Shown: one piece after another, positions 2,115 through 21,840 of the stretch
How the letters are laid out: every line of letters begins with the position of its first letter
Numbering within the stretch: position 1 is the stretch's first letter
From: a virus
Taxonomy: Duplodnaviria; Heunggongvirae; Uroviricota; Caudoviricetes
Virus record (IMG/VR): IMGVR_UViG_2563366928_000005
Span: 1-39,863 of that record
DNA: 39,863 nucleotides
Reading direction: 5' to 3' (one strand)
Position numbers and translations under genes: made by a program
The notes under the pieces: model-generated
The model's database searches: none
What the model saw: only the letters and a program-made list of their open reading frames with translations
Told to the model about the DNA's origin: nothing

Positions 2115-3808
2115 TTCCTCCGGATCATCTTCCTGAACTTCAACCTGATACTCTTCATCGAATGTTTCCTGGTATGTTGCGCCACTGGTTCAGGCTGTTT
2201 CGTTCCTGGCTCGTTTTGTAACGCATTTGGGCTGTTTTGTTCCGCTTTTTGGTAGTTCCGTTCCGATTCATGCTGGTTCTGGTTCACAGAATCGCGGGTC
2301 TGGATCCCCTTAACCCATTTCGGATCATTCGGGTCACTAATCCCTTCAACAAATTCACCACGTGATGCAGCAAGCAACTTATCGGCGTCAGGCTGGCTGA
2401 TATTGGCTGCCTGCATAATTTTGTTTACTTCGTCAGCGGTAACTTTTATCGGCTCTGGTTGTTCTGAATCTTCAGCGGTATCTACATTTTGCGGTAAGCC
2501 CGTGTATGTGCCATTTTTTCGGGCAAAATATTCTTCTTTTGTGATTTCAGTGGCGCCAGCAGCCAGTGCCTTATCCAGACCAGAAAGTTTGTTTGCGCGA
2601 CCGCATTTTTCTCCGTCCTTATCTGCGAAGAGGAAATAGAACGGCCCCTCACGCTCTACAGATGGTTCAGCTTCCGGCGCGGTTTCATTTTTTGGGATAT
2701 CAGATACCTCAGTTTCCACTGCATCAGTTTGTGTTTCTGATGACTGGAGAACATCAACAGTGCCCAGGTCTGTTTCTTCATTCTCAAACACGCCCTTTGT
2801 CGTCAGGTATTCGCAGATATATTTGTTCAGTGCTATGGGATCTTTGTGAATGTCGATCGGACGCTCACGGACAAGGCCAAAAATAGTTTGGCGGTCGTAG
2901 CGAAGGGCATCAGGCTGTTTGCGCATTGATGCCGAGATACGCTTCCAGTCTTCGCGGTCGTTGTCGATAACTTCATTTTTTGCCCAGCGATGGATGCTGC
3001 CGTCAATGTTTCCGGCATCCACATCACCAGGCCAGAGAGCGTAGGCCAGTTCGTCATCCAGTGTTTTCCATGTCTGCTTGTATTCGCGATGAATGGCAGC
3101 AATGACCGGGCTGATTTTTCCTGTTGAATTTTCAGTGTACTGTTGATTGGCTCTGGCGCGGGCGAGATCAACAACAGACGTGTATTTTCCGGTTTCCTTG
3201 CGTTCACCTTCGCGACGTTTTTTCCAGATGCGCATCTCTGCCTGAATTTCGGGCCATTTAGCACCAGGAATACATTTATGCTTAACCCACCCAATGGCGT
3301 GCAACTTAAGCTCCGGATACATGGCGTTAACTTCTGGCATTTTCATCAACGCTTCAACGATATGTCCGTCGAATGTTGCCATGTCTTCCTGCAACAATTC
3401 CTGTGCGCTAATAACCATATCAACGGTGATGTTTTCACATGTGTCGAACTTAACCATGACAGCGTTCTGTACTTCAGGGGCCAGCTTGTCAAAAGTGACG
3501 TTCATCGGATCGGATTCAGTCTCAACCGGGACAAAGGAAGCAGACTCCTCATCCCAGCGGTTTTCCTGCATATATTCAGCATCCCAGGAATCGAGGGCAG
3601 GGCGGGGTATGCCGGGTTTATCCTCACAGACAATAAATTTATAAGCGCAGTCCTGAGCTGCAGGGAATTGCTCCAGAAATTGCCAATGAAATTTTGCGCG
3701 TGCGCGACGCTCATCACCAGCTTCAATGGCAGTGGCCACCGCAACAGCGCTATCTTCTTTTATGGCCTGTTCATCAGGAATAGCAGCGCAAATAAAGACC
3801 TTACTCAT
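2012..3808 (-). CDS. Large acidic early-region protein, unknown function
   Basis: 598-aa uninterrupted ORF in the early-left operon; no motif I recognise; low-complexity C-terminal tail overlaps the exonuclease ORF. Confidence 0.5.
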
Positions 3809-14443: not shown

Positions 14444-15493
14444 ATGCTTAATACTGTAAAAATATCCAGTTGTGAGTTAATCAACGCCGACTGCCTGGAA
14501 TTTATCCGGTCGTTACCCGAAAATTCTGTTGACCTGATAGTCACGGACCCGCCGTACTTTAAAGTGAAGCCTGAGGGCTGGGATAACCAGTGGAAGGGCG
14601 ACGATGATTACCTGAAGTGGCTGGACCAGTGTCTGGCGCAGTTCTGGCGGGTGCTGAAACCTGTCGGAAGTCTTTACCTGTTCTGTGGTCATCGCCTGGC
14701 ATCTGATATCGAAATCATGATGCGTGAACGCTTCAGTGTGCTGAACCATATTATCTGGGCGAAGCCGTCCGGACGCTGGAACGGATGCAACAAGGAAAGC
14801 CTGCGGGCGTATTTCCCCGCCACAGAGCGCATTCTGTTCGCGGAACATTATCAGGGGCCGTATCGTCCGAAAGATGCCGGGTATGCGGCGAAGGGCAGTG
14901 CACTGAAACAGCATGTGATGGCCCCGCTGATTTCTTACTTTCGTGATGCGCGCGCTGCCCTGGGGATAACGGCAAAACAGATTGCAGATGCCACAGGAAA
15001 GAAAAACATGGTGTCGCACTGGTTCAGTGCCAGTCAGTGGCAGCTACCGAACGAAAGCGATTATCTGAAATTACAGTCGCTGTTTGCCCGGGTGGCAGAA
15101 GAGAAACATCAGCGCGGTGAACTGGAAAAGCCCCACCACCAGCTGGTGGATACGTATACGTCACTGAACCGGCAGTATGTGGAGCTGCAGAGTGAATATA
15201 AGCATCTGCGGCGGTATTTTGGTGTGACGGCGCAGGTGCCGTACACGGATGTGTGGACACATAAACCGGTGCAGTTCTATCCCGGGAAACATCCGTGCGA
15301 AAAACCGGCAGAAATGCTGCAGCAGATAATCAGCGCAAGCAGTCGTCCGGGTGACCTGGTTGCAGATTTTTTTATGGGCTCAGGTTCAACGGTAAAAGCG
15401 GCACTGGCGCTTGGGCGTCGTGCGATTGGCGTTGAACTGGAGACCGGACGTTTTGAGCAGACAGTCAGGGAAGTTCAGGATTTAATCGTTTGA
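14444..15493 (+). CDS. DNA methyltransferase, beta-class amino-MTase (N6-adenine or N4-cytosine)
   Basis: DPPY motif (LIVTDPPYF) near the N-terminus and FxGxG SAM-binding motif (DFFMGSGST) near the C-terminus; no adjacent endonuclease. Confidence 0.85.
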   Translation: MLNTVKISSCELINADCLEFIRSLPENSVDLIVTDPPYFKVKPEGWDNQWKGDDDYLKWLDQCLAQFWRVLKPVGSLYLFCGHRLASDIEIMMRERFSVLNHIIWAKPSGRWNGCNKESLRAYFPATERILFAEHYQGPYRPKDAGYAAKGSALKQHVMAPLISYFRDARAALGITAKQIADATGKKNMVSHWFSASQWQLPNESDYLKLQSLFARVAEEKHQRGELEKPHHQLVDTYTSLNRQYVELQSEYKHLRRYFGVTAQVPYTDVWTHKPVQFYPGKHPCEKPAEMLQQIISASSRPGDLVADFFMGSGSTVKAALALGRRAIGVELETGRFEQTVREVQDLIV

Positions 15494-18620: not shown

Positions 18621-18705
18621 AAAGTGAGCCAGCCAAATGGAAGGTATCGTTAAACTCACCGGTAGTGTCAGTGGGTCGTCTGAGATGCCTGCATGAGTTA
18701 TCAGA

Positions 18706-18736
18706 GCCATCAGTACTTAACTGGTGGCTTTTTTTA
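18706..18736 (+). terminator. Putative rho-independent terminator between esterase and holin
   Basis: GCCATCAG-TACTTAA-CTGGTGGC (one mismatch) followed by TTTTTTT. Confidence 0.45.
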
Positions 18737-18770
18737 TTGTTGTCAGCTTCCGGATAACGGGAGACGGGGT

Positions 18771-18986
18771 ATGTACCAGATGGAAAAAATCACAACAGGT
18801 GTGTCATACACCACGTCAGCGGTGGGAACGGGCTACTGGTTCCTGCAGTTGCTGGACAGGGTTTCCCCGTCTCAGTGGGCGGCAATAGGCGTGCTGGGGA
18901 GTCTGCTGTTTGGGCTGCTGACATATCTGACTAACCTGTATTTCAAAATCAGAGAGGACCGTCGTAAGGCGGCGCGGGGAGAGTAA
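18771..18986 (+). CDS. S: Pinholin, phage 21 S-type, with dual-start motif
   Basis: MYQMEKI dual start then [51 protein letters not shown], matching S21 as I recall it; GGGAGACGGGG RBS. Confidence 0.85.
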
Positions 18987-18990
18987 AGCG

Positions 18991-19881
18991 ATGAAGAAAA
19001 AATACGAACTGGTTGTTAAAGGGATAAATAATTACCCGGATAAGATTACTGTTACTGTGGCACTGGAAGTTGGTGGGTATCCGTCACTGTTGTTGCCAGA
19101 TGTGGCGATTAGTCTTGACCGTACTGAAGGTGCCACGCTGGAGTTTTACGAAGCTGAGGCGAAAAAGCAGGCGAAGCAGTTTTTCATGGATGTTGCTGCC
19201 GGGTTATGTGAAGGGGATGAGCAGTCGCCGGAAAAGCGCCCCGTAATTTTAGAGGCGCAGGATGTGTTGATAACCTACAAAGGAAAGCTACCGGGAAGAA
19301 TTACTTGTTCTCTGAAGATGCCGCCGTCAACACTGCGGTCAGAAAAAGATGATGTTGAATCACGTATTGAAAAACTGGAGAGCTACGTCGTTGAGCTGAA
19401 TAAGAAATGGTCGATATTGGTGCCTTCTGACGATGAAAAGCAGTTTGCTGCGTTTGACGATTATTGTCGGAAAGTGATGAGCAGAAATCTCGCAGAGTGT
19501 TTCAGTATTCATAATGATAATTTCAGTGAGCTGGAATGGGAGTGTAACCGGCCATCCTTTGTTGTATCCGGTGATGCTGGGAAAATAACCATCTCAGAAA
19601 ATGGGAAAGTAACACCTCCATCGCACCAGCACAGTGAGGAGCTCATTGAATTTGCCATTGATTACCTGAAGAACAATAAAAAGCAGGGGCTGATGAAGCG
19701 CGTTGGCCGTTGCATGGGATATCTTCAGGTAGCCGCTGAGATTGAAGCGCTGGCCAGTGGTGCTGATAAGGATGCAATTGTGCGGGAGGCTCTTCTTCGT
19801 GATTTTAATACTCCACCCTTTAAAAAAGTGCCGGCTTACTGGCTTCATCCGGGGCTGACTTATCTTAAAGTGCGTATTTAG
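18991..19881 (+). CDS. Hypothetical protein inserted between holin and endolysin
   Basis: 296 aa, no transmembrane segment or recognised motif; GGGGAGAG RBS; 4-nt gap from the holin stop. Confidence 0.6.
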   Translation: MKKKYELVVKGINNYPDKITVTVALEVGGYPSLLLPDVAISLDRTEGATLEFYEAEAKKQAKQFFMDVAAGLCEGDEQSPEKRPVILEAQDVLITYKGKLPGRITCSLKMPPSTLRSEKDDVESRIEKLESYVVELNKKWSILVPSDDEKQFAAFDDYCRKVMSRNLAECFSIHNDNFSELEWECNRPSFVVSGDAGKITISENGKVTPPSHQHSEELIEFAIDYLKNNKKQGLMKRVGRCMGYLQVAAEIEALASGADKDAIVREALLRDFNTPPFKKVPAYWLHPGLTYLKVRI

Positions 19882-19917
19882 TGGGCCAGGGACAGCGGCT
19901 GAATATTTAATATATCC

Positions 19918-20451
19918 ATGAACACCAAAATCAAATACGGCCTGTCGGCTGCCGTTCTGGCGCTGATTGCCGCTGGTGCGCCTGCGCCTGACATTCTCGA
20001 CCAGTTTCTGGATGAAAAGGAAGGTAACCACACCACGGCATACCGTGATGGTGCGGGTATCTGGACCATCTGCCGCGGTGCCATCCTGGTGGATGGCAAA
20101 CCTGTCGTTCCGGGCATGAAGTTGTCGAAGGAAAAATGCGACCGGGTTAACGCCATTGAGCGTGATAAGGCGCTGGCATGGGTGGAGAAAAACATCAGAG
20201 TGCCATTGAGTGAACCCCAGAAAGCGGGGATCGCGTCATTCTGTCCGTACAACATTGGTCCCGGTAAGTGTTTCCCGTCGACGTTTTATAAACGAATTAA
20301 TGCAGGTGATCGCAGGGGAGCGTGTGAGGCGATTCGCTGGTGGATTAAGGACGGTGGCAGAGACTGCCGTATTCGTTCAAACAACTGCTACGGTCAGGTA
20401 TCCCGTCGTGACCAGGAGAGCGCGCTGGCGTGCTGGGGTATCGACAGATAA
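19918..20451 (+). CDS. R: SAR endolysin (GH24 lysozyme with N-terminal signal-anchor-release domain)
   Basis: N-terminal Gly/Ala-rich weak TM segment YGLSAAVLALIAAGAPAP followed by E...D...T catalytic pattern (EGNHTTAYRDGAGIWTICRG). Confidence 0.9.
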   Translation: MNTKIKYGLSAAVLALIAAGAPAPDILDQFLDEKEGNHTTAYRDGAGIWTICRGAILVDGKPVVPGMKLSKEKCDRVNAIERDKALAWVEKNIRVPLSEPQKAGIASFCPYNIGPGKCFPSTFYKRINAGDRRGACEAIRWWIKDGGRDCRIRSNNCYGQVSRRDQESALACWGIDR

Positions 20452-20545
20452 GCAGAATATTTTGCTGAAAAATAAGGTATGGCCACGCGGGCGGATAACA
20501 CGAAATCCTGCGAACTGGCGAAACGTAAGTGAATAAAAGTAAAAA

Positions 20546-20580
20546 CCCCGTTTGTTGGCACCAAGCGGGGTTTTGTGTTT
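20546..20580 (+). terminator. Putative terminator between endolysin and spanin genes
   Basis: CCCCGTTTG-TTGGCAC-CAAGCGGGG hairpin followed by TTTTGTGTTT. Confidence 0.5.
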
Positions 20581-20610
20581 CCTGACTCCGGAAAAGTCAA
20601 AGGAGAAAGT

Positions 20611-20748
20611 GTGTTTGATTTTAGCAAACTGATTCGGGAGATTCGAGTGATGGCTGAAAAATTATCCACCTGGAAGTTCATTCTTATCTGGCTGGTGTTT
20701 GTGATTATGGCCTCCGGTTATTTCATCGGTCAGATACGCTGGTGGTGA
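20611..20748 (+). CDS. Small single-pass membrane peptide coupled to Rz
   Basis: GTG start 5 nt after AAAGGAGAAAG; 45 aa with hydrophobic core [18 protein letters not shown]; stop 1 nt before the Rz ATG; not in the ORF track. Confidence 0.35.
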
Positions 20749-20749
20749 A

Positions 20750-21217
20750 ATGAACCGCGTACTGTGCGTGGTCATCATTGCCCTGCTGGTGGCCTGTGGT
20801 GCGCTTAGTCTGGGGCTGAATCATTACCGTGATAACGCCATTACCTACAAAGCCCAGCGCGACAAAAATGTCAGAGAACTGAAGCTGGCGAACGCGGCAA
20901 TTACTGACATGCAGATGCGTCAGCGTGATGTTGCTGCGCTCGATGCAAAATACACGAAGGAGTTAGCTGATGCGAAAGCTGAAAATGAAACTCTTCGCGC
21001 TGACGTTGCCGCTGGTCGTAAGCGCCTGCGTATCAACGCCACCTGTCCAGGTCCCGTGCGTGAAGCCACCGGCACCGCCCGCGTGGATAATGCAACCGGC
21101 CCCCAACTGGCAGACACCGTTACACGGGATTATTTCACCCTCAGAGAGCGGCTGATGACGATGCAGAAGCAACTGGAAGGGGCGCAGGAATATATCCGTA
21201 CTCAGTGCCTGAAATAA
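20750..21217 (+). CDS. Rz: i-spanin Rz
   Basis: 155 aa; DNA and protein closely match lambda Rz as I recall it ([17 protein letters not shown]...). Confidence 0.9.
20970..21155 (+). CDS. Rz1: o-spanin Rz1 (embedded in Rz, +1 frame)
   Basis: 61 aa, lipoprotein signal with lipobox LVVSAC and Pro-rich mature region, fully nested in Rz. Confidence 0.8.
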
Positions 21218-21567
21218 GTTTTGTTGATGCGCCGTATCGTCGCTGTATTCCCTCATTAACAGAGACCGCAGCCCGACAGGGAGACTCCTCTGCGCGAGTG
21301 TGCGGGGATAATCAAAAACGATACACACCGGGGTTTACCGCGTTAACGGAGCGCGGCGTTGTCCCCTCATAGTCGCCTGTCCGGTGCGATGGTGGAAGAA
21401 ACCGGATGTTTATCACTATTAATTGATGACACAGAAATGGATTCATTGAATTTCAGCACGTTTTTGTATTCGTGTTATTGAACATCTGTTTATTTTACTT
21501 TTAACATATTGATAATAAAAAGAGCTGTAAATCTTTAGATGAGTCGATTTTGTCCGGGGAAGTTCAA

Positions 21568-21708
21568 ATGGATTTTATGCTGACGGTTTCTGGTGTGGTT
21601 ATCCTGTCCATTGCTTATACTGCAGATAAATATGGCTGCCATTTGTTATCACGTATTGGCGCTTATTGTTCGTTGATGCTGATTTTCTCGTCGCTTTTTT
21701 TTGAGTAA
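21568..21708 (+). CDS. Possible small hydrophobic peptide
   Basis: 46-aa ORF found by hand (MDFMLTVSGVVILSIAYTADKYGCHLLSRIGAYCSLMLIFSSLFFE) in an AT-rich region; weak RBS. Confidence 0.2.
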   Translation: MDFMLTVSGVVILSIAYTADKYGCHLLSRIGAYCSLMLIFSSLFFE

Positions 21709-21840
21709 GTTATATTAATTATAACAAATAATTTTCTGTGTTATTTTTTCAGGCTATCCCGTCAGAGGGGAAGCCTGTACTGCCGGGGAGCGAATGGAAA
21801 ACTGATGTGTCCGGTAACTGCGTGTTCTGTGAACACCATG

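Follow-up and report, generated by a model that had tools for sequence, protein, structure and literature searches.

Between the endolysin and Rz genes of a tailed phage (Caudoviricetes) lies a small cassette that combines a terminator-like hairpin, a second RNA hairpin and a gene for a 45-amino-acid (aa) membrane peptide, and I will argue here that this cassette is a mobile unit of late operons and that it may encode an antisense RNA directed against its own peptide gene. The DNA in question comprises positions 1 to 39,863 of IMG/VR virus record IMGVR_UViG_2563366928_000005 (39,863 nucleotides (nt), hereafter the window). The cassette is real and more structured than a preliminary description of this DNA had seen, and the interpretation offered there needs changing. 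The explanation that I regard as the best overall, with about an even chance of being right, is that of a self-contained accessory cassette that entered a phage-21-like lysis operon between its endolysin and Rz genes and that carries several brakes on the production of its membrane peptide.

The open reading frame (ORF) is almost certainly a real gene. It had been described as a 45-aa frame with a GTG start behind an AGGAG ribosome-binding site (20611..20748), as encoding one hydrophobic helix and as ending 1 nt before the Rz ATG, with conservation of the frame in related phages as a point to be looked for, and all of this is borne out: the Shine-Dalgarno (SD) sequence AGGAG (20601-20605) stands 5 nt before the GTG at 20611, the single helix is W21-I42, the stop ends at 20748 with Rz starting at 20750, and frame, length and transmembrane (TM) segment are kept across phages of Gamma- and Betaproteobacteria. 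The peptide matches phrog_6632, a family with no assigned function, over its full length (E 1.2e-29, residues 1-45 on profile positions 1-45 of 45), and it is annotated by RefSeq as WP_000459345.1 in some Escherichia coli genomes and also in the CP-1639 record, while most records omit it. A charged N-terminal segment of about 20 aa is followed by the C-terminal TM helix (22 residues; nt 20671-20736), the predicted topology is N-in, only RWW follows the helix and there is no lipobox. Homologues extend to approximately 35-50% identity in Pseudomonas, Azoarcus and metagenomes. When codons were compared among 31 non-redundant sequences, codons 15-43 gave a proportion of synonymous differences (pS) of 0.77, which is saturated, and a nonsynonymous proportion (pN) of 0.33, with pN/pS about 0.4 and with frame and length kept; the ORF is under protein-level selection, and its N-terminal part is translated too, because the codons of Leu7 (five codons), Ile8 (two) and Arg9 (both CGN and AGG) switch while the amino acid stays the same. 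A chance ORF behind an ordinary terminator might be invoked because many annotation pipelines skip the gene and the family has few members (41 clusters at 50% identity among 1.84 billion proteins), but its probability is close to nil, since it is effectively refuted by the codon-level analysis and sits badly with a conserved frame, length and TM segment and a full-length PHROG family. What takes hairpin and ORF together beyond chance is their conservation across loci, since a simple scan of the single window finds no excess of terminator-like sites (2 found, 2.2 expected); the two co-occur in more than 170 fetched loci.

The cassette is a unit and it is mobile, and the hairpin (hairpin 1) very probably belongs with the peptide gene in that one portable unit. 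In 316 phage records the endolysin shares one 3' flank, made up of the 94 nt behind its stop (20452-20545), whereas the ORF is covered to at least 80% in just 49 phage records and matched at all, by tblastn, in 53. In the Sakai prophage Sp15 the same flank enters a different insert (ant plus a 48-aa membrane ORF) near the point at which the A-run and hairpin begin here, a comparison that sets the 5' boundary of the cassette; the 3' boundary is the stop codon, where homology between contexts stops. Because the insertion boundary is sharp and the hairpin travels with the ORF elsewhere, the hairpin is part of the cassette and not of the endolysin gene. In every other context the distance from hairpin to ORF is fixed (approximately 35 nt), and the A-run on the 5' side of the hairpin is kept by the cassette across unrelated contexts. 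The preliminary description had recognized the same element, although its coordinates (20546..20580) are a few bases off at the 5' end, the stem spanning 20542-20574; a view of the hairpin as the terminator of the endolysin gene is not supported in light of the 316-record flank, Sp15 and the other contexts. The remark made there, that lambda lacks anything between R and Rz, is borne out for lambda-type cassettes by the K-12 prophages DLP12 and Qin, in which the endolysin and Rz genes overlap. The cassette is absent from these two and from Sp15, and present in H-19B, CP-1639 and many Shiga toxin (Stx) phages. A covariance model of the 5' module of the cassette (R1), meant to reveal additional copies or an association of the module with other genes, detects a single copy in the window (20538-20649, 100 bits) and none in P22 immI, Sakai Sp15 or K-12 DLP12 and Qin.

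This mobility is also seen in the range of genomic contexts. At least 80% of a 321-nt region is found in 871 of 5,426 complete E. coli genomes and, at the same coverage, in 39 phage records, H-19B and many converting phages for Stx1a, Stx2a and Stx2c among them. In IMG/VR, a relative is encoded by 415 stretches. Neighboring genes were identified by PHROG scans, with Pfam labels for further metagenomic loci. Salmonella phage SPN3UB carries the cassette between endolysin and Rz; SEN34, Rac-SA53 and 'Actinobacillus' phage pPE4 carry it between the genes for the baseplate spike and wedge, and Pseudomonas phage YMC11/02/R656 has it in the tail region; further copies reside in prophages of Citrobacter, Edwardsiella, Yersinia, Sodalis, Brenneria, Pantoea, Providencia and Pseudomonas and in an Azoarcus metagenome-assembled genome, the last among podovirus internal virion genes, and the carriers overall are sipho-, myo- and podoviruses of Enterobacterales, of Pseudomonas and of this Azoarcus genome. 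About one third to one half of the distinct lineages sit exactly at an endolysin-spanin junction, where the endolysins (phrog_7, phrog_181, phrog_315) are unrelated to one another and the spanins belong to phrog_13, phrog_1026 and phrog_312. Tail and baseplate junctions comprise tail I to J, the position after tail K, major tail or gpT to tape measure, and baseplate V to W, and other copies follow a tail fiber gene or lie among T7-like tail and internal virion protein genes or in a Mu-like head module. On the upstream side the longest flanking ORF runs in the direction of the cassette in 29 of 32 cases, on the downstream side in 27 of 31, and the next gene mostly starts 1-15 nt after the cassette stop.

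Two RNA helices covary within the cassette. Hairpin 1 has 13 pairs and is GC-rich, it is flagged by a terminator scan and predicted as the same element by folding, and with an A-run (20541-20545) on its 5' side and GGGGTTTTGTGTTT on its 3' side, its A-rich and T-rich flanks make it terminator-shaped on either strand. Pairs were counted on an alignment (A3) of 30 non-redundant cassettes, with partners slid by 1-3 columns and 500 shuffles as controls. Hairpin 1 is 98.3% paired, with changes on both sides at 8 of its 10 pairs, and it is present in eight of nine further distant relatives; the helix of hairpin 2 is 85% paired, with changes on both sides at 6 of 10 pairs. Taken together, 91.9% of cells in the two helices are paired as compared with 44-60% in the slid controls, and 14 pairs change on two sides, a number reached by none of the 500 shuffles. 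The stem of hairpin 2 appears as CCTTG/CAAGG, CGTTA/TAACG, TGACT/AGTCA, CATG/CATG, CCTG/CAGG or TCTG/CAGA. Folding of the sense strand yields hairpin 2 (z = -2.8), in which the U-run of hairpin 1 (20578-20583) pairs with 20601-20606, and because this U-run pairs with the SD sequence, an mRNA reading through hairpin 1 would have a masked ribosome-binding site. U-G pairs do occur in helix 2 when it is read as the plus strand, though the comparison of G-U and A-C counts between strands is weakened by several misaligned sequences.

The start of the peptide gene is constrained in a second way, since codons 3-6, and more weakly codons 9-12, are under constraint at the nucleotide level. Third-position entropy is 0 at codons 3-5 (GAT; TTT, ATT or CTT; AGC) and low at codons 9-12, and amounts to 1.2-2.0 at codons 7-8, 13 and most of 15-43; pS is 0.085 for codons 3-6 as compared with 0.77 in the gene body. 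Read on the minus strand, codons 3-6 are TTTGCTAAAATC, which contains a candidate extended -10 promoter element, TGnTAAAAT. The form TGnTAnnAT is kept in all 76 of the unique cassettes on which motif and start counts were made, with variable bases limited to -16, -13, -9 and -6, positions that are not critical for a promoter of this kind. The three synonymous sites that never vary correspond to -8, -11 and the G of TGn, while the third base of Lys6 (-17) varies; the G comes from Ser5, which is always AGC, a choice that a preference for A/U-rich early codons would not explain. Nine more distant relatives were fetched together with their DNA (among them the loci numbered L186, L189, L190, L191, L193 and L194), and five of these (L186, L189, L191, L193 and L194) have the motif in the same register, 27 nt before the internal ATG, as TGCTAATGT (encoding H-I-S-R), TGATATAAT (D-Y-I-K, in L189), TGCTAAGAT (H-L-S-R) and, twice, TGCTAAAAT, with different amino acids encoded and with a perfect consensus TATAAT in L189. 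The sole relative without the motif, L190, is also without hairpin 1 and is not in a co-oriented operon. A -35 candidate, TCGCAA or TCGAAT, is found in 65 of 76 cassettes and is the reverse complement of codons 11-12, where the rare Arg codon CGA is used in 29 of 31 sequences. It is a weak point of the motif that TGNTAWWAT occurs 7 times in the window on both strands, with 3.75 occurrences expected by chance. The existence of an antisense RNA is, in my estimation, slightly more probable than its absence. Its predicted start lies at about the complement of the GTG, and it would span the start codon, the SD sequence and hairpin 2 and fold as two stem-loops (-23.2 kcal/mol, z = -3.1). Such a transcript could use hairpin 1 as its terminator, since TTTTTACTTTTA comes after the hairpin when the minus strand is read.

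The arrangement has a close parallel in the sar/ant system of phage P22, where sar RNA pairs with the ant mRNA and represses ant translation (PMC12197685). In the P22 record, sar occupies 15021-15090 of the minus strand, its terminator (15021-15058) lies between arc and ant, and its promoter (15097-15125) lies inside ant (start 15091), that is at ant nt +7 to +35; when read from the sequence, Psar is an extended -10, TGCTATACT, that comes from ant codons 3-5. Both systems have an intrinsic terminator in a short gap just 5' of the ribosome-binding site of the target. The antisense promoter of P22 is located in the opening ~35 nt of ant, with TGCTATACT at +7 to +15, and the candidate of the cassette, TGCTAAAAT at +8 to +16 of the peptide ORF, lies one base from that position; the sar RNA, of ~70 nt, covers the SD sequence up to the start codon, and the RNA predicted for the cassette would do likewise. 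The sar terminator (AAGCCCCAACTG...CAGTCAGGGCTT; L184, 3022-3059) also resembles the hairpin 1 of Rac-SA53-type cassettes (L003, 1486-1524), with a local score of 31 as compared with 14.6 +/- 2.1 for shuffles, a likeness that may reflect shared ancestry or convergence of terminators. The differences lie in the target, which is a 300-aa antirepressor in P22 and a 45-aa membrane peptide in the cassette, and in the location, since sar belongs to the immunity region and the cassette is portable and found in late operons. By analogy, the cassette would be sar/ant-like by design and not a demonstrable member of the sar family.

On this basis, the payload of the cassette would be a 45-aa inner-membrane peptide with a charged cytoplasmic N-terminal segment and a C-terminal TM helix, made only from read-through of the late operon, because no sense promoter is present (a consensus promoter scan finds no plus-strand promoter-like site in 19800-21800) and the cassette is always co-oriented within a late operon. 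The brakes would be an upstream intrinsic terminator, which a Q-modified late transcription complex is expected to read through; the second hairpin, in which the U-run of the terminator pairs with the SD sequence; a GTG or TTG start in most members (GTG in 66 and TTG in 8 of the 76 unique cassettes, ATG in 0); and, most likely, a constitutive minus-strand extended -10 promoter in codons 3-6, from which an antisense RNA of ~72 nt, complementary to the start codon and the SD sequence, would run to the same bidirectional hairpin. In the lysogen, stray transcripts would be halted by the terminator or silenced by the antisense RNA, whereas after induction a massive antiterminated late transcription would outrun the antisense RNA, and the peptide would be made late, its translation ending 1 nt before Rz and possibly being coupled to it; the spacing from endolysin to Rz is 298 nt and the gap from peptide stop to Rz ATG exactly 1 nt, and translation of the two may be coupled. 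Such an accumulation of brakes implies that the product is harmful. That the peptide is a membrane toxin or lysis helper is possible, if somewhat doubtful, and my best guess, drawn by analogy, is a late membrane-active toxin that might, for example, collapse the membrane potential and sharpen or assist lysis as HokW of prophage Sp5 does; the antisense transcript, the antiterminated read-through, the toxicity and the late role at the membrane are all features that I infer.

Several observations weigh against this account, and they should be considered together. The -35 candidate matches just 3 of 6 positions and the consensus promoter scan does not call the site; among the nine distant relatives, three have a -10-like motif that is displaced by 2-3 nt or is unclear; the low synonymous variation of codons 9-12 could reflect an internal SD sequence for Met14, and the constraint on codons 3-6 could in principle stem from another overlapping signal. 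An Rfam search over 19800-21800, and over 20500-20680 at E <= 10, returned sub-threshold hits only and no sar (the scores, with 24.7 bits against 47 for the rimP leader and 15 against a gathering score of 50 for ohsC, the best match to an antitoxin RNA, reflect the terminator stem), which, together with the absence of R1 from P22 immI, speaks against homology to the sar RNA family, only the terminator stems being alike. No transcript, transcription-start or ribosome data were found for strains carrying the cassette; the main text of Tree et al. (2014), an Hfq CRAC (crosslinking and analysis of cDNA) study of strain Sakai, places small RNAs downstream of PR' and stx and mentions none in lysis genes, a negative of limited bearing, since it was not established that any Sakai prophage has the cassette (Sp15 carries a different insert). 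The start codon is ATG in seven of the nine more distant metagenomic relatives, so that a weak start codon is common and not universal. For the toxin role in particular, the peptide has no match in Pfam, NCBIfam or PADLOC, and for read-through, a strong sense terminator within P2- or Mu-like baseplate operons, where no antitermination is known, is awkward.

The cassette might also work on the sense strand alone, with no antisense RNA, hairpin 1 acting as a terminator, an insulator or a 3'-end stabilizer of the upstream gene's mRNA, hairpin 2 damping translation, the conservation of the first 13 codons reflecting initiation constraints plus an internal SD/ATG isoform, and the peptide being an ordinary late accessory membrane protein. 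Such a cassette would account for the conserved sense T-run after hairpin 1 that doubles as the anti-SD arm of hairpin 2, for the U-G pairs in plus-strand helix 2 (where several sequences are misaligned), for the internal SD-like motif and ATG in 76 of 76 cassettes and for the weak -35, the negative promoter scan and the missing Rfam match, but it leaves unexplained why Ser5 is always AGC and Asp3 and Phe4 always end in T while the third positions of Lys6, Leu7 and Ile8 vary, why the register of the motif is kept despite amino-acid changes, with a perfect TATAAT in L189, and why the A-run, which gives the minus strand its terminator shape, is carried into unrelated contexts; the geometry also equals that of the experimentally defined P22 sar, and I regard a sense-only cassette as rather unlikely. 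The internal start deserves attention in its own right, since Met14 is invariant, an SD-like motif lies ~9 nt upstream of this ATG in every one of the 76 unique cassettes and some annotation pipelines call the 32-aa form, so that an isoform of 32 aa, almost the TM helix alone, is possible. If the antisense RNA shifted translation from the GTG to the Met14 start, instead of silencing it, the cassette would be a portable two-output switch, in which the 45-aa and 32-aa forms would be an inhibitor-effector pair, like lambda S107/S105 or P22 SieB/Esc, and the ratio of antisense RNA to late mRNA would set the timing of membrane permeabilization. The cassette has two potential in-frame starts with SD-like motifs (GTG 20611 and ATG 20650) that could serve as a dual start of that kind, and the predicted antisense RNA overlaps the upstream start only, a point of likeness to P22 sieB/esc, where the sas antisense RNA shifts translation between the two sieB products (PMC12197685). 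However, the lambda isoforms differ by 2 residues and the putative cassette isoforms by 13, and S, SieB and Esc have no homology to the cassette peptide. The switch seems quite improbable to me; if true, it would make the cassette a plug-in timer for the membrane that phages of several proteobacterial orders, sipho-, myo- and podoviruses alike, have each fitted into whatever late operon was at hand.

The preliminary description had suggested a possible antiholin-like or spanin-associated peptide, and this could be widened to any dedicated lysis component acting with the signal-anchor-release (SAR) endolysin or with Rz/Rz1, including one that resembles the releasin of phage Mu. The position speaks for it: the lineages found at endolysin-spanin junctions involve three endolysin and three spanin families, the stop lies 1-2 nt before Rz, in Sakai Sp15 this position is taken by a small TM peptide of an unrelated family (phrog_4906; ECs_5741), a family that in phiSTEC1589-Stx1c stands in tandem with the cassette, and membrane-tethered helpers of SAR endolysin release do exist, an example being Mu gp25 (DUF2730), a small membrane-tethered and mostly cytoplasmic protein with N-out/C-in topology and a cytoplasmic domain of ~70 aa that is encoded near a SAR endolysin and spanins (PMC9239132). 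Yet copies of the cassette also stand well away from lysis genes, in operons for baseplate, tail, head and internal virion proteins; its peptide has no match among holin, spanin or releasin families, DUF2730 included, in PHROG, Pfam and NCBIfam; the window has a holin of its own (18693-18986; phrog_20 and phrog_9876); and some partner endolysins, by sequence reading, are without an Ala/Gly-rich N-terminal segment. The peptide is less than half the size of gp25 and of opposite topology, and with ~3 periplasmic residues its contact with the periplasmic domains of Rz/Rz1 is unlikely, nor does it have the periplasmic coiled-coil domain or lipobox of a spanin, Rz and Rz1 both being encoded downstream. 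A lysis-specific function in the sense first proposed is thus not supported, and a dedicated lysis component is, in my estimation, improbable, although a lysis-related role keeps some support from the endolysin-spanin junction being a recurrent site of the cassette. Alternatively, the element could benefit the lysogen, either through an antisense RNA, made from the prophage, that cleaves or silences the late polycistronic mRNA of an incoming phage with the same cassette or through a peptide that acts in the inner membrane as a superinfection-exclusion protein (cf. HK97 gp15 and Sie). A predicted minus-strand promoter, short RNA and terminator would form a classical moron layout, the cassette always lies within essential late operons and often beside other morons (ant, KilA and Arc-like genes), and there is a precedent in STnc6030, an antisense RNA expressed in lysogeny from within late genes that excludes the cognate superinfecting phage (PMC7067206). 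Against it, the peptide is under clear protein-level selection, and the RNA is therefore not the sole payload; no sense promoter would serve the peptide in the lysogen, and several features lower its output; and upon induction the RNA would also act on the very prophage that encodes it, a difficulty to which the authors of the STnc6030 study likewise draw attention (PMC7067206). I consider a lysogen-benefit element very unlikely, and the braked accessory cassette remains the reading that I prefer.

When compared with other known systems, the accessory cassette comes near to the type I toxin-antitoxin modules such as hok/sok and hokW-sokW, the latter of which, in the Stx2 prophage Sp5, assists lysis and phage release after induction (PMC8621323). 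The shared features are a small hydrophobic membrane peptide (<60 aa, with insertion predicted for that of the cassette), a structured mRNA leader that sequesters the SD sequence and a location in prophages; as to the short terminator-ended antisense RNA that covers the start region in such modules, the cassette has the conserved minus-strand candidate -10 and a hairpin shaped as a terminator on both strands, from which a like RNA is predicted. The cassette differs in having no toxin promoter, a defining feature of these modules, so that its expression depends on the host operon, in a peptide with no homology to known toxin or antitoxin families and in a TM helix that is C-terminal and follows a charged N-terminal segment. 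Morons, in the sense used for HK97 and HK022, are extra genes between late genes with their own promoter upstream and a terminator downstream. The cassette is like a moron in being present or absent at one junction among otherwise related phages and in being compact and leaving the late genes undisturbed, but its terminator is upstream of the gene, it has no sense promoter, and the only fitting promoter-terminator pair is on the opposite strand, where it would make a small RNA. [quoted passage not shown] Despite the 45 codons and the read-through terminator, identity of the two ORFs was rejected, since the sequences are unrelated, orf45 is not conserved as a peptide and precedes anrP; moreover, the conserved unit of the cassette excludes the region upstream of the hairpin. 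By these analogies, the cassette is best filed as a variant of the antisense-controlled small membrane-toxin modules or of the morons.

The cassette is common yet left out of most genome annotations, the gene and any RNA alike, and it sits within the lysis operon of many Stx1a, Stx2a and Stx2c phages and of H-19B, an operon whose timing governs the release of Shiga toxin. If the antisense RNA is true, it would be a widespread addition to the few known cis-antisense regulators of phages, the P22 sar layout would be a reusable design and not a one-off, and the cassette would represent a new kind of accessory element, in which a promoterless toxic-peptide gene with its own terminator and antisense lock borrows the transcription of a late operon. 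The case also illustrates that a promoter on the complementary strand can betray itself through a shortage of synonymous changes where a small ORF begins. On a conservative reading, what is gained is a well-delimited, conserved small membrane protein with no assigned function. The features of the cassette and its neighbors are given in Table 1.

Table 1. Positions in the window of the cassette, its predicted elements and the adjoining lysis genes.
Feature	Position	Strand	Description
Whole portable cassette	20537..20748	+	A-run, hairpin 1, T-run, hairpin 2 including the SD sequence, 45-codon ORF through its stop; ~210 bp (base pairs)
Hairpin 1	20537..20585	both strands	Intrinsic-terminator-like; stem 20542-20554 with 20562-20574; from terminator scan, folding and covariation
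Hairpin 2	20578..20606	+	TTTCCTGACT (20578-20587) pairs with AGTC (20595-20598) and AGGAGA (20601-20606)
45-aa peptide gene	20611..20748	+	GTG start, 45 codons and TGA stop (20746-20748)
Possible internal start	20636..20652	+	SD-like GGGAG (20636-20640), 9 nt, ATG of Met14 (20650-20652)
Candidate extended -10	20618..20626	-	TGCTAAAAT, from codons 3-6 (GAT TTT AGC AAA)
Weak -35 candidate	20641..20646	-	TCGAAT, 3/6 match, 17 nt upstream of the -10, from codons 11-12
Predicted cis-antisense RNA	20537..20612	-	~72-76 nt; ends at hairpin 1, then UUUUUACUUUUA
Rz junction	20740..20752	+	Two Trp codons and stop (TGGTGGTGA) form the SD-like GGTGGTGA just 5' of the Rz ATG
Endolysin (upstream neighbor)	19918..20451	+	Phage lysozyme, PF00959 and phrog_7; Ala/Gly-rich N-terminal hydrophobic segment
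Rz i-spanin (downstream neighbor)	20750..21217	+	PF03245 and phrog_13
Rz1 o-spanin	20970-21155	+	Embedded in Rz; phrog_3198

The sequence TGGTGG plus a stop codon, as at the Rz junction of the window, ends 66 of the 76 unique cassettes. Full-text literature searches by the peptide or DNA sequence found no paper, and those on genes placed between R and Rz or on antisense RNAs encoded within lysis cassettes returned nothing specific. A few other candidates in and around the cassette were rejected: a 17-codon ORF in the flank (ATG at 20480), which is not kept in the Sakai version of that flank, was not accepted as a gene; a 95-aa minus-strand ORF that overlaps the cassette and is annotated in CP-1639 is without conservation; and a second minus-strand promoter-like site (20733-20704, CTGACC-18-CATAAT), which would give an RNA of ~155 nt, was treated as chance, since it lies in the synonymous-saturated region and is not conserved. 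Two loci depart from the usual form of the cassette. In Dryocola clanedunensis (L102, ~2975-3135) the TM half of the peptide is fused to another N-terminus with an ATG start, without an adjacent hairpin 1 and without the minus-strand -10, and looks like a coding module parted from its regulatory module, and in L121 (2385-2536) an insertion of ~40 nt separates hairpin 1 from the SD sequence (152 nt matched to the 113-position model), with the ORF and the -10 motif intact, where an antisense RNA would be correspondingly longer.

The surroundings of the cassette are variable as well. The flank at 20452-20545 marks an insertion hot spot, being far commoner than the cassette, with either the cassette or ant starting right after it, and the R-Rz junction seems to collect small membrane ORFs. 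The phrog_4906 family (43-48 aa), a second family of small single-helix membrane peptides that lies directly upstream of Rz and is unrelated to phrog_6632, is represented after ant by ECs_5741 in Sakai Sp15 (L183, 3749-3895, minus strand) and in phiSTEC1589-Stx1c (L185, 1038-1169), where it follows the phrog_6632-type cassette and another hydrophobic ORF, of 23 aa, precedes Rz. In SPN3UB an unannotated hydrophobic ORF of ~36 codons (MSKRDVSALCFLMAAAVAISGNDGWGWLIFAGIIIL; L006, ~2236-2346) was read by eye between the lysozyme gene and the cassette. In the window itself, a 296-aa gene (18991-19881; phrog_1085, function not assigned) separates holin and endolysin, and the same slot of a related E. 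coli locus (L001) contains a YdfR-family gene and a minus-strand ORF, making this another variable slot of the lysis operon; 3' of Rz, a 46-aa hydrophobic ORF (21568-21708; MDFMLTVSGVVILSIAYTADKYGCHLLSRIGAYCSLMLIFSSLFFE) has no PHROG match, and its L001 counterpart is annotated as hypothetical protein WP_000347013.1. Lastly, the record of 'Actinobacillus phage vB_Apl-pPE4' (PP818812.1; L009) and that of Escherichia phage Rac-SA53 (L003) have equal local gene order and peptides that are both 88.9% identical to the query, and since pPE4 is recorded from an Actinobacillus host yet is very close to an E. coli Rac-type phage, its host assignment may deserve a check.

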